A stretch of DNA of 64,000 nucleotides from a virus (taxonomy: Duplodnaviria; Caudoviricetes), in IMG/VR virus record IMGVR_UViG_3300025387_000018, positions 1,579 to 65,578 of that record; one strand, given 5' to 3'. The stretch's first letter is position 1. Each line of letters opens with the position of its first letter. The translations under genes and the position numbers were made by a program. Below the pieces are notes generated by a model, which saw only the letters and a program-made list of their open reading frames with translations, ran no database searches and was not told where the DNA came from. Shown here one piece after another: positions 17,492 to 22,866 of this stretch.

Positions 17492-20158
17492 TTATGCTAA
17501 TTTACCTTTGGGACTACCGACCATAGCAAAAATTTTCTCTAAAGATGGTAACCAAACTGGAGAAGCATGGAAGTTGTCAATATAATTCTTTGAAATTTCT
17601 GTACCATTACCATGCGCATTAAATGTATTAAATGGATTTGTGTAACTTGGCTGAGCAGCACTGTTACTTCTTTCGTTTTCTTCTCTATTAGGTTGTTGTT
17701 GATTGAACATTGGCAATGGTCCAAGCATATCAGCACTTCTAGAAACACCACCTTGCATTTCTGCTGCTTGTGCGCTTCCTGCTCCAAATAACTCACCAAC
17801 CAAATTACCAATCATTGGGATAGCCATATTCATTATGCCACCCATACCACCCATTCCTCCCATGCCACCCATCATTCCCATCATATTAGACATACCACCC
17901 ATTGGCATATTCATAGATGGAGTCATTGGTGGTTGTTGTACTGGAGCAGCAGAACCGCCAGACATTGCTGTTGATTGGTTTGTATCTGTTGCTCCGGAAG
18001 TTTGGTCTGCTCCTTCATGACCAGAACTTCCTCCACCAATTTGTGCATGTAAATGATTAAAATGTCCGCCAGATCTCCAGATGACCTTATAACCAGCTGC
18101 TCTTAATTGTTCTGCAAGAGCATCAAATTTCTTACCCCATACTGGATCATTTGCCTCTACTGTTCCTGGAGGTCCATTTACGTCTATTGCTTCGCCTCTA
18201 TAATGAGCACTGTTTTTAGCATGCCCTCCAGCTTTCACTCCTCCGAAAGATGGATGTTCAGAAACATTAATTCCTTGACCTTGTAGATATTTACCAAGAG
18301 CAACAATGTCTCCAGATGGAACAGAACCTTTCGCTGATTCTTTTTGTCTGGATTCGCTTGATAATATAGGACTTGATTGTGGTGTGGCTGTGGCAGCTGC
18401 CGGTGTTTCTGTTCTTCCAGAAGTTGCTGATGGTAAAGCAGCAAGAGATGCAGAAGTAGGCATTTTCTGACCAGTAGAAGCTCCCATACCAAATTTACTT
18501 GCAGCATCATGAGATACTTCTTTTCCGGAAGCAAACGCTTCAGGAGAAGTTTTACTAACAGTTTTTTCTAATGAATTAATATAACTTCTGTTTGTTGCCA
18601 TATCCTTTCCAGGATTCTTTGGCCTCTCGAAGTCAGTAACGAAAGCATCAGCTGCAGCTCCAGTATCAGCATATTTTTTACTGAGATATGTTTTCATATC
18701 TCCTTCAGTCATAGCATAATCAATTTGACCTTTCCAATTTTTTTGCCAATTGGGACCAGCTGCAGCCACCATCTTCGAAAATCTATCAGCATGATGTTGG
18801 AATAATCCACCTGAGGTGCCATTATCTCCAATTATACCAGAATTAAACCCTGATTCTCTTTGTATATTTGCTAATATACCCATAGCATGAGTTTTGTCGA
18901 TACCTTTTGATGTTAGATAATCGAATATTTCTTTTGCCATTACAGGATTGCTAATGCTTTTCTCTGCTATTGGCCCAGCTGCTCCGGAAGCAGATGAGCC
19001 AGATCTATTACCAGTTAGTGTGTCTACCTTTTCCTTTACCCAATCTTTTGCAGACTCAAACCAACCTTTTTCTTCTTTCTTTTCTGGAACTTTCTGTGCG
19101 TCTTTTACGCTAGATGAAACTTCAGCACCACCAAACATATTCATGCTTTTATAAAGGTATTTGCCGAGCATCTCACCACCTTGAGCTCCAGTCAAACCAC
19201 CAGCAAAAGTTCCAAGTGGTCCACCAGAACTACCCAAAATAGCACCCAAAGTCCCACCAATTGCAGAACCAATACCAGCTGATATTGCTTCGCCTGGACT
19301 AGAGCCAGAACTTATACTGTCCATGGCAACGAGGCCAGTAGCAATTAAAGCACCAACTCCCGGTATTCCTTTTATGCCTGCTTTTAATACAGATTTTGTT
19401 CCACCAAGAACACCTTTGAATATTGCTTTGGCAGATGCTGTTTTTGAAACAGTTTTACCACCAGCCCCCCAATCACCAGCAGCTTGCTGTAATAGTTCTG
19501 TCTCAGAACCTGCCATAGATGCTGCAGCGCCAGCGCCAATAGCAGTGGCAGCACCGGCAGCACTCTTAACACCACCACCAAAGAATCTTGATAGTAATCC
19601 TTTTCCTTTACCAAGACCTTTTCTGCCCGATTTTCTGCCATAATTGTTGACTTCAATATCTGGTTTACCAAATAATTTATCCCAAATAGATTCTTTACCA
19701 CCAATTCCATCTTCTAAATTTTTGAGATCTTTATCAATATCATGTAATTCATCATATAATCTGTCAGTGTCAGCCTGTCTACCTTTATTCATTTTAACAA
19801 GTTCAGATAGTATTCTGTTTTGAACATCTAATGTTTTCTGCATTAGATCATTATTGGTGTTGGTTACATTGGCAATCTTATCAATTGACTTTTCGTTCTT
19901 CTTTTCTTTTTGTTCTAATTTTGTAATGTATTCTTTTTGTTCTTTGACTACAGAAGTAAGGTCTTTTAGTGCTGATATTGTGGAGGCGTCAATGTTTCTG
20001 GCAGCTCTTCTTGAAGCAGATTCTTCTTTTTGTATTTTTTTGTTATCTTCTTCGAACTGCTTCAGTGCTTGTTGAAGTTGTAATTGTCCAGGAGTTGGTG
20101 GGACATCACCAATCGGAACAAATTCACCTGGATTTATTTGACCTTGTTTCCTAGCCAT
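17492..20158 (-). CDS. tape-measure / baseplate-hub (gp29-position) protein with phage tail-lysozyme and M15-like peptidase domains
   Basis: coiled-coil N-terminus, Gly/Ala-rich helices, GILANIQRESGFN...GLFQH, H-x6-D...HxH; downstream of gp26/51. Confidence 0.75.
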   Translation of the reverse strand: MARKQGQINPGEFVPIGDVPPTPGQLQLQQALKQFEEDNKKIQKEESASRRAARNIDASTISALKDLTSVVKEQKEYITKLEQKEKKNEKSIDKIANVTNTNNDLMQKTLDVQNRILSELVKMNKGRQADTDRLYDELHDIDKDLKNLEDGIGGKESIWDKLFGKPDIEVNNYGRKSGRKGLGKGKGLLSRFFGGGVKSAAGAATAIGAGAAASMAGSETELLQQAAGDWGAGGKTVSKTASAKAIFKGVLGGTKSVLKAGIKGIPGVGALIATGLVAMDSISSGSSPGEAISAGIGSAIGGTLGAILGSSGGPLGTFAGGLTGAQGGEMLGKYLYKSMNMFGGAEVSSSVKDAQKVPEKKEEKGWFESAKDWVKEKVDTLTGNRSGSSASGAAGPIAEKSISNPVMAKEIFDYLTSKGIDKTHAMGILANIQRESGFNSGIIGDNGTSGGLFQHHADRFSKMVAAAGPNWQKNWKGQIDYAMTEGDMKTYLSKKYADTGAAADAFVTDFERPKNPGKDMATNRSYINSLEKTVSKTSPEAFASGKEVSHDAASKFGMGASTGQKMPTSASLAALPSATSGRTETPAAATATPQSSPILSSESRQKESAKGSVPSGDIVALGKYLQGQGINVSEHPSFGGVKAGGHAKNSAHYRGEAIDVNGPPGTVEANDPVWGKKFDALAEQLRAAGYKVIWRSGGHFNHLHAQIGGGSSGHEGADQTSGATDTNQSTAMSGGSAAPVQQPPMTPSMNMPMGGMSNMMGMMGGMGGMGGMGGIMNMAIPMIGNLVGELFGAGSAQAAEMQGGVSRSADMLGPLPMFNQQQPNREENERSNSAAQPSYTNPFNTFNAHGNGTEISKNYIDNFHASPVWLPSLEKIFAMVGSPKGKLA

Positions 20159-20161
20159 TCT

Positions 20162-20347
20162 TTACCTTTGTGCGTTTCTTGTTTTTTCTTCTTGTTCTTT
20201 AATAAACATCGACAACATATCTATATAAATGTCACGCTCAAATGGTATAAGATCTTCAATTTCGCTTATTGAATATTTATGATGTTGTGCTAAACTGAAT
20301 ACTGTTGAATAATAGTTATGCAATGTATTGTGGTTTAGCGCAAGGTA
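20162..20347 (-). CDS. gp51: gp51-like C-terminal segment with no own start codon; probably made as a -1 frameshift fusion to gp26-like
   Basis: hand-translated YLALNHNTLHNYYSTVFSLAQHHKYSISEIEDLIPFERDIYIDML...; -1 frame relative to the upstream ORF. Confidence 0.75.
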   Translation of the reverse strand, partial: YLALNHNTLHNYYSTVFSLAQHHKYSISEIEDLIPFERDIYIDMLSMFIKEQEEKTRNAQR

Positions 20348-21045
20348 AAAAAATCGTTTAACGAACTTAATACAATTTCTCTATCATGCTCCAAAGAATT
20401 CTTATATTTGATTGTGTGTTTCATCGCCGGAAGATTTACCAAAAACTCTCTGATTTTATCAAAAGTTTTAACGTCTAGATCTTCAAGAAACTCTCTGATT
20501 TGTTCTAGTTTATAATCTTTTGACTCATAAACATTCTCGCCATCATAGATTTTATCGATACAACGGACAATCAACTCGAAAATGTAATCTTTTTCTGAAT
20601 TGATAAAATCTTTATCATCATACAAACTGGCTGCAGGATATTTCAGAACAACACCAGAAGTTTTTGTCACTTCAATTTTATTGCTTACGTCTTTCGGGAA
20701 TTCAACTTCAACTGCATTGAGATCTACACTGAACTCATAAACCTTATCATCTTCAAAATCTTTGTATGCAACTTTAACAACGTTATCTACTGACATGGCA
20801 CGTAGTTTTAAGAACACGTATTCCAAATCAAAAATAGCAACAGAATCCACATCAAATTTATCATCGACAGAACAATTATTTACCACTTGTTTAATGGCCT
20901 GCAACACATCAGATGGAGTATCGCTTTCTTTGGCTATCAATAATAGTTTCTCTTCTTTTACTAAAAATGGTCTGAACTTAAACCCTTTATTCAAAGAAGG
21001 TATTTTAATAACATTAATTGGATATGAAATTTTTGGTAAAGACAT
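20335..21045 (-). CDS. gp26: baseplate hub assembly protein (T4_baseplate family)
   Basis: MSLPKI, FRPFLVKEEK.LL.A, FD.EY.FL.LRA.S, ends LNDFF. Confidence 0.85.
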   Translation of the reverse strand: MSLPKISYPINVIKIPSLNKGFKFRPFLVKEEKLLLIAKESDTPSDVLQAIKQVVNNCSVDDKFDVDSVAIFDLEYVFLKLRAMSVDNVVKVAYKDFEDDKVYEFSVDLNAVEVEFPKDVSNKIEVTKTSGVVLKYPAASLYDDKDFINSEKDYIFELIVRCIDKIYDGENVYESKDYKLEQIREFLEDLDVKTFDKIREFLVNLPAMKHTIKYKNSLEHDREIVLSSLNDFFTLR

Positions 21046-21077
21046 TATAAATCTCCATGATTATTAATTCATACAAG

Positions 21078-21758
21078 TTAAGGTGTAGTTGGACTCAAAG
21101 AAGTGCCTTGAGTGAATAGAGCTGGAGGAACAGTTGAAGGTGGAGTTGATACAGTTGACACTCCCTGTTCCGGAGTTGAGAATCCAGCTCCCTCTATGGT
21201 CATCTCTTTGAAAGATAGACCTACTGTTATTCTTAACAATTGATTGTTGTTTCCCCAATTCAGTTGCATGTCATTGATGGAAATTGGAAAAGCATCATAC
21301 ATGTTAATCGTCTGAGAAACGTTACCATAATTATCAAATACTTCAATGGTTATTTTGGTGGAATATTTCTCTTTGTATTCTAATTCATAAGTTGGTAATT
21401 TATTCGTCACGCCAACAACATTATCGGCGCCACCAAAATCAAAAATAGAATTAATCCACAAATACCAGAAAGACCAGATATCTCCACGACCATCAGATAT
21501 GAAAGAAATAACATTGTCAGTGTAGGCTCCGGAGAAAGGCATTGCTTGTTTTACGCCAATACCATGTCTGAATACATCGCTGCTTTGTAATGTTATCCCA
21601 GGAGCTTTCACTGATTCAGCTCTGAAAGTAAGCAACTCTGGTATGTTATTACTTACGCCTTGCATTGTATTAGGAGGAGCAATAGTAACTTTAAAACGGT
21701 TATTCTGAAGATAACCATTTTTTTCTATATTTGATCTAAAGCTATCTACATTAAACAT
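21078..21758 (-). CDS. gp54: tail-tube initiator / gp19-like paralogue
   Basis: NRF.V.I, FRAES...PG, W...I, Y...AFP..I....L.W. Confidence 0.65.
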   Translation of the reverse strand: MFNVDSFRSNIEKNGYLQNNRFKVTIAPPNTMQGVSNNIPELLTFRAESVKAPGITLQSSDVFRHGIGVKQAMPFSGAYTDNVISFISDGRGDIWSFWYLWINSIFDFGGADNVVGVTNKLPTYELEYKEKYSTKITIEVFDNYGNVSQTINMYDAFPISINDMQLNWGNNNQLLRITVGLSFKEMTIEGAGFSTPEQGVSTVSTPPSTVPPALFTQGTSLSPTTP

Positions 21759-22416: not shown

Positions 22417-22848
22417 TTAGAATTTGATCCCTAACTCGTGTTCTGTCATAATGATAAAATTCCAACCACGGTCTTTGCAGTATTCATCTGCAGCTTTCCA
22501 TTTGGCTTGATTTTTACCCCAAGTAACAACCTCATTAATGTATCTTCTCGTTGGTTTGCTGATAACTTCTGGTGGTTTTGTCTGGCTATATGGTTTGACT
22601 TCAATCAATATAACATCACCATTTGATTTTTTAATCCAAAAGTCAGGAAAATATCTGTGTATTTTGTTGTCTATCGGTGATCTATAAGGTATAATAATTT
22701 CTTCCGAAGACCATTGCACAATTTGTGGATCATCATCTAAACGACTCATCAGTTTCAATTCCCAACGCGAACGGTATATTATATTAGTTGGGTCTCCTTT
22801 GTATTTGTTTGGGTTTTTTGGCTTAAAATGACCTTTATATGTTGGCAT
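22417..22848 (-). CDS. gp4: head completion nuclease (TnsA-like)
   Basis: YKG.FKP.NP.KY.GD...I.YRS.WE, WSSEE..IPY, HRYFPDF, IEVKP. Confidence 0.95.
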   Translation of the reverse strand: MPTYKGHFKPKNPNKYKGDPTNIIYRSRWELKLMSRLDDDPQIVQWSSEEIIIPYRSPIDNKIHRYFPDFWIKKSNGDVILIEVKPYSQTKPPEVISKPTRRYINEVVTWGKNQAKWKAADEYCKDRGWNFIIMTEHELGIKF

Positions 22849-22866
22849 ACAATCTCTCAAACTTTA

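Follow-up and report, generated by a model that had tools for sequence, protein, structure and literature searches.

How one chaperone gene of a T4-like phage might supply the two proteins that T4 makes from two genes is the question raised by the window, a stretch of 64,000 nt of the record IMGVR_UViG_3300025387_000018 (a metagenomic IMG/VR fragment of 65.6 kb, about 40% complete). The genes for gp32, gp2, gp48 and gp53 in the surrounding DNA identify a T4-like myovirus. We found one PF12322 gene in the record, located directly upstream of a tape-measure-type gene and resembling T4 gene 26, and a segment resembling the end of T4 gp51 continues from it in the -1 frame. Judging from the sequence and its relatives, we consider it probable (roughly 85%) that a -1 ribosomal frameshift of the lambda G/GT type, on a slippery heptamer near the end of this gene, produces both a 236-aa and a 294-aa protein.

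The features concerned are all on the minus strand. The short-form gene (20335-21045) encodes a gp26-type tail assembly chaperone (TAC-N) of 236 aa, assigned through PF12322, phrog_150 and an AlphaFold2 model, and its open reading frame (ORF) ends GAT TTT TTT ACC TTG CGC TAA. The slippery heptamer U UUU UUU (T TTT TTT in DNA) was located at 20347-20353 in the phase X XXY YYZ, covering codons Asp231 (GAU), Phe232 and Phe233, and the zero-frame stop TAA (20335-20337) lies three codons past it. In the -1 frame, the extension with its gp51-type C-terminal tail (20162-20347, assigned through phrog_634 and hhalign) starts from TAC (20347-20345), reads YLALNHNTLHNYY...PFERDIY..., and after 61 codons ends with TAA at 20164-20162, leaving a 3-nt spacer before the ATG of the tape-measure-type gene (20158). 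The predicted fusion therefore has 233 + 61 = 294 aa. The heptamer, its phase, the 61-codon -1 ORF and the 294-aa fusion had been proposed in the initial annotation, and each was found again in the sequence. The same annotation described a -1 frame closed by an upstream stop and lacking a start; we found no ATG or GTG before the NYY..HHKYS..PFER core in the window, as claimed, and the upstream stop is followed by nine sense codons, not eight, before the two Phe codons of the T run, which is a trivial correction. A promoter and terminator scan of 19900-21300 gave nothing above shuffled expectation, and no such signal was found between the two ORFs.

The family assignments follow the same division of the gene. 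The 236-aa protein matched PF12322 (T4_baseplate) with E 7e-53 and 180 bits against a gathering cut-off of 24.5; residues 10-233 cover profile positions 4-218 of 219, so that it is a full-length family member, and it matched phrog_150 with E 3e-55. The profile of its clade aligned with T4 gp26 by hhalign over the full length, including the GLxxFFxL motif (E 3e-14). For the 61-aa extension, the C-terminal half of phrog_634, a family that carries the gp51 annotation "baseplate hub assembly catalyst", was matched at E 5e-24, and the extension profile aligned by hhalign with residues 207-244 of T4 gp51 (E 3e-4). T4 gp51 itself (249 aa) matched PF12322 on residues 1-201 (E 4e-52) and phrog_634 on residues 147-246. 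From these matches together with the alignment to residues 207-244, T4 gp51 reads as a gp26-type body joined to the tail for which the present locus uses its -1 frame. The gp26-like and gp51-like identities suggested earlier from the letters are thus borne out, and so are two statements about T4: its gp26 (208 aa) ends ...GLKEFFELL, in agreement with the EFF given there, and its gp51 does carry a comparable C-terminal segment. The tail homology of a gp51-type long form is therefore present at this locus, and the covalent attachment of that tail to the gp26-type body would depend on the frameshift.

The arrangement is shared by many phages. The extension was found by tblastn in 492 phage records, including cyanomyoviruses, Sinorhizobium phiM-type phages, Pelagibacter phage HTVC008M, Caulobacter phage Cr30 and others. 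A DNA-level search of phage genomes gave only short matches of 55-100 nt and no close cultured relative, and the window phage can be described as an unannotated, uncultured relative of the T4-like phages. The comparison drew on 92 loci whose proteins are 33-79% identical to that of the window (among them 83 from IMG/VR and 8 from cultured-phage genomes; 91 unique genes). All 92 have an in-frame T TTT TTY located 0-8 codons ahead of the zero-frame stop, which follows the heptamer within 0-3 codons in 87 of 91 relatives, and all 92 have a -1 extension of about 60 aa (range 54-80). Conservation of the heptamer and the start-less -1 ORF among T4-like relatives, which had been left to an alignment, was thus found. 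The conserved core of the extension, LSH..NYY..QHHKYS..PxER, begins within 3-6 residues of the slip site. No version fused in frame was found among the 92 loci. Because the phased heptamer and the extension are present in 92 of 92 homologous loci, their combination is far above chance by sequence comparison.

Further evidence came from the silent positions of the heptamer; at 33-79% identity such positions should be largely randomised. The codon before Phe-Phe has T at its wobble position in all 91 unique genes, compared with a residue-dependent background of 37-76% (log10 P about -15.7 under independence), and the first Phe codon is TTT in all 91, against a background of 71% (log10 P about -13.8). 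The second Phe codon, which carries the Z position, is free (TTT in 51 genes and TTC in 40). A fixed X XXY YY with a free Z is, at the level of sequence, the signature of tandem tRNA slippage. A natural control is provided by phages with separate genes 26 and 51, for which we took T4, KARL-1, IME13, MIZ2, dhabil, KPV15, S16 and one IMG/VR contig (Straboviridae). The heptamer is absent in all eight; their gene 26 ends with GAG TTC TTT, GAA TTT GTT, AGT TTC CTT and the like, and Phe-Phe is not always kept. From this absence, the silent-site constraint appears confined to phages in which one gene must yield both forms.

We infer from these observations that slippage occurs at the heptamer and that it is made by the ribosome. 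Most ribosomes would stay in the zero frame, stop at 20335 and release the 236-aa gp26-type protein. A minority would slip back by one base with two tRNA-Phe on the UUU UUU of U UUU UUU and read 61 more codons, up to a stop located 3 nt ahead of the tape-measure gene. Their product would be a 294-aa protein of gp51 type that consists of the same first 233 residues and a helical tail. If lambda G/GT is taken as the model, the chaperone domain at the N-terminus of both forms would coat the tape-measure protein, and the long form would, through the tail that it alone has, dock the complex to a further component of the tail or hub. T4 and its close relatives have a diverged gene for each member of the pair (26 and 51). 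Slipping is probably made more frequent by ribosome pausing at a downstream RNA helix and at the close zero-frame stop.

The candidate helix lies at 20285-20343 on the minus strand and is formed by a 5' arm at 20333-20343 and a 3' arm at 20285-20295 (7 + 3 bp), with a smaller hairpin enclosed; the zero-frame stop codon is inside the 5' arm. The 99 nt from the heptamer have a minimum free energy of -14.5 kcal/mol (z -3.9), and none of 200 shuffled sequences was as stable. Across the relatives, the stretch of 65 nt that follows the heptamer has more structure than control windows of the same locus, with a median at the 16th percentile and 29% in the lowest 5%. In the clade of the window (35 sequences), a 9-bp helix starts 8 nt past the heptamer, with 90.5% of cells paired against 20-35% when the partners are slid; four of its pairs changed on both sides, and none of 500 shuffles reached this level. 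In the window and its nearest relative the register of the helix is shifted by 5 nt from that of the clade, and the register of the window is 75% paired across the clade. A single conserved register for all 89 sequences was considered and rejected, as registers differ between clades. No Rfam family was matched within 20100-20500 at E <= 1. The sequences support a downstream helix that acts as a pausing element and is neither universal nor fixed.

We might speculate, at odds well below even, that the downstream long-range helix, with the stop in its 5' arm and with a register that drifts from one sub-lineage to another although the pairing persists, is a lineage-specific frameshift stimulator, or alternatively that the long form comes partly from polymerase stuttering. 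If the helix is such a stimulator, termination and slippage would compete at one structured site, and either possibility, if true, would add mechanistic detail beyond that seen reported for T4-like chaperone genes.

Two further elements were observed around the slip site. Loci of the cyanophage-type clade, which have TTTTTTC, contain a different candidate hairpin 6-8 nt past the heptamer, for example CCCTCT...AGAGGG or CTCTTCC...GGAAGGG, and its register shifts by one codon between members. A sequence resembling a Shine-Dalgarno site (GAGG or GGAG) is located 12-15 nt upstream of the slip site in 49 of 91 relatives, though not in the window. It comes from conserved Glu-Gly codons (GAG GGN); it is spaced much like the stimulator found upstream of the dnaX slip site in E. 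coli, and it may reflect protein conservation only.

The AlphaFold2 model of the 236-aa protein was obtained from 76 aligned sequences with a predicted local distance difference test score (pLDDT) of 88.6. Through exhaustive structural alignment of model residues 1-95 against 48,161 PDB chains, the first three ranks were 3FGX (Z 8.3, root-mean-square deviation (rmsd) 3.9, 86 aligned residues), 2OB9 (HK97 gp13; Z 6.9, rmsd 4.3, 85 aligned) and 3KLU (YqbN; Z 6.9, rmsd 4.5, 86 aligned); ORF12 of lactococcal phage p2 (3D8L) had Z 3.1. A Z of about 7-8 is middling on the scale of the alignment tool, yet the three structures known as tail assembly chaperones according to PMC9603447 all rank at the top. 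The N-terminal domain of the model has the tail-assembly-chaperone fold. With the gp26 model as query, Foldseek returned no PDB structure at E <= 0.001, and a PDB sequence profile search with the gp26 alignment gave nothing at E <= 1. The model of the extension is a helix, a short helix and a helix (pLDDT 71), and a fold search with this 61-aa model gave generic helical matches only (Z <= 5.9).

Several points weigh against the frameshift. Work in E. coli does not place U UUU UUU with the most efficient slip sites known in bacteria. As the record is about 40% complete, a separate gp51 gene may be present elsewhere in the genome. Since the loci are related, the P values of 10^-14 to 10^-16, which were calculated as if they were independent, overstate the significance. 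The helix of the window differs in register from most of its clade, and downstream structure clearly above background was seen in only about one third of the relatives.

The alternative that survives best is transcriptional slippage, in which some mRNAs gain one U through polymerase stuttering on the T run, so that the 294-aa fusion is encoded in a single frame and made with no slip by the ribosome. The run is indeed homopolymeric (6-9 T), and an additional U would yield an identical fusion. Efficient polymerase slippage, however, usually needs runs of at least 8-9, and in 40 of 91 loci the run stops at T6, with a C next. The pattern of constraint also argues against it: the last position is free (51 T, 40 C) though a T there would lengthen the run, the two tandem re-pairing positions are invariant, and no locus departs from the X XXY YYZ phase. 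The structured element located 3-8 nt downstream agrees with pausing of the ribosome. The "other mechanism" of the 2022 paper of Vladimirov, Gautam and Davidson (Virology) is taken by the PRFect authors to be two separate genes (PMC10885494). We regard polymerase stuttering as the sole source of the long form as improbable, and a ribosomal slip explains the constraint better.

Less probable still is that two separate proteins are made and the small ORF is translated on its own, by initiation at a TTG or by termination and reinitiation, as a free gp51-like peptide of 53 aa. Such a TTG is present at codon 9 of the extension (20323-20321) and is the sole start-like codon before the core, but no Shine-Dalgarno-like sequence precedes it; the first ATG of the extension in the window is codon 44. 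In the relatives, no start codon stands ahead of the conserved core in 57 of 91 loci, so that conserved residues precede any start; no more than 34 of 91 unique loci have an ATG, GTG or TTG by extension codon 4, and the position of the first ATG varies between codons 2 and 56, if there is one. Homologues without the slip site and with a conserved ATG and Shine-Dalgarno sequence for the small ORF were not found in the survey of 92 loci. Independent translation would also leave unexplained the invariant synonymous sites of the heptamer and their loss in two-gene phages, and in T4 a gp26-type domain and the homologous tail belong to one polypeptide. In favour of separate proteins, a free small peptide is what most database records show: the GenBank entries of S-RIM32, phiM19, HTVC008M, Cr30 and B3 give the extension a gene of its own, "gp51 baseplate hub assembly catalyst" (45-59 aa), with differing starts. 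The extension was left unannotated in the records of ACG-2014j and S-CAM8, and ribosomal slippage was marked in none of the eight GenBank records examined.

That a homopolymer sequencing error or a real frameshift mutation split one gp51-type gene, meant to give a single product, deserves hardly any weight: errors are frequent in homopolymer runs and the record was assembled from a metagenome, but the same frame arrangement in 92 independent loci, 8 of them in cultured-phage genomes and none fused in frame, excludes sequencing error, and the zero-frame stop is always within 0-8 codons.

Taking the -1 ribosomal frameshift as the preferred explanation, the locus can be compared with known systems. 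The slip site U UUU UUU differs from that of lambda, which is G GGA AAG. In other respects the locus is like lambda G/GT: it lies between the tube and tape-measure genes, it has an X XXY YYZ heptamer near the 3' end and a start-less -1 ORF reaching the tape-measure gene, and the predicted N-terminal domain has the chaperone fold. There is no detectable sequence similarity to lambda G/GT, and the protein, which has an additional domain at residues 96-236, is roughly double the length. The lambda gpG/gpGT pair and the conserved -1 frameshift in tail assembly chaperone genes of long-tailed phages were described by Levin et al. (1993) and Xu, Hendrix and Duda (2004). HK97 gp13 (2OB9), YqbN (3KLU) and Rbstp2171 (3FGX) have the "spiral" tail assembly chaperone fold of Pell et al. 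(2013), as given in PMC9603447; residues 1-95 of our predicted model superpose on them over 85-86 residues with Z 6.9-8.3, at sequence identities of 9-14%.

Among T4-like phages, the locus shares with the gp26/gp51 chaperones the PF12322 family, a predicted short and long pair with a common N-terminal body, and the same C-terminal tail on the long form. Unlike T4 and other Straboviridae, which have two diverged, divergently transcribed genes (the T4 proteins are 20% identical) and no heptamer, it has one gene directly upstream of the tape-measure gene. According to PMC12846349, which cites Vladimirov, Gautam and Davidson (2022), poly-T motifs in the TAC-N genes of T4-like phages are known to be -1 slip signals, and the PRFect paper (PMC10885494) cites the same work for T4-like phages in which frameshifting is replaced by two genes, a short one and a long fused one. 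In PMC12846349, a conserved GTTTTT -1 slip motif is also reported for the tail chaperone locus of Vandenendeviridae and Andersonviridae, with Pseudomonas phage Adele as an example. That locus resembles ours in its poly-T motif at the 3' end of TAC-N, its downstream ORF misannotated as separate or intergenic, and its evidence based on conservation; it belongs to another phage family and its chaperone sequence is unrelated.

The frameshifted chaperone of T4-like phages was thus already described in 2022, as far as the citing papers convey it, and the present locus is a well-supported, new and unannotated example and not a new principle. T4-like myoviruses would share the short and long chaperone logic of lambda, P2 and other long-tailed phages, with T4 itself a derived or alternative case of two hard-coded genes. 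As the latter point is already in the literature through the citations of Vladimirov et al. (2022), the value added here is confirmation with a natural control, namely synonymous constraint in one-gene but not in two-gene phages. For annotation, the small "gp51 baseplate hub assembly catalyst" ORF, which has an arbitrary start or is omitted here and in hundreds of records, is most likely the C-terminal tail of a long gp26 form made by frameshifting.

The genes around the chaperone are ordered, all on the minus strand, as tube (21078-21758), chaperone (20162-21045) and tape measure (17492-20158). The tail tube gene is gp19-like (phrog_45 "tail tube", E 5e-33; weak matches to PF23849 and PF06841). 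The tape-measure-type gene encodes 888 aa and would be the client of the chaperones. Its assignment, which agrees with the tape-measure-like reading of the initial annotation, follows from its position and from matches to phrog_9570 (E 7e-14) and phrog_13339 (E 4e-14), "tail length tape measure protein"; BLASTP showed no similarity of the candidate to T4 gp29 (E 0.38).

The tape-measure-type protein contains a PF18013 tail-lysozyme domain at residues 408-517 (E 3e-18; around 18608-18937). Residues of about 617-722 (around 17993-18310) have the pattern H-x6-D ... H-x-H (HYRGEAID ... HFNHLH), and this region looks like a zinc peptidase of LAS/M15 type; if so, a single tape measure would carry two cell-wall hydrolase modules. 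A repeat rich in Gly and Met was found close to the C-terminus. Further upstream, at 22417-22860 on the minus strand, a 147-aa protein with a TnsA-like endonuclease N-terminal domain (PF08722, E 1.5e-22) is encoded between the gene of the gp2 DNA-end protector and the divergent gp48 gene, and the tail module may thus harbour a nuclease of mobile or homing type.

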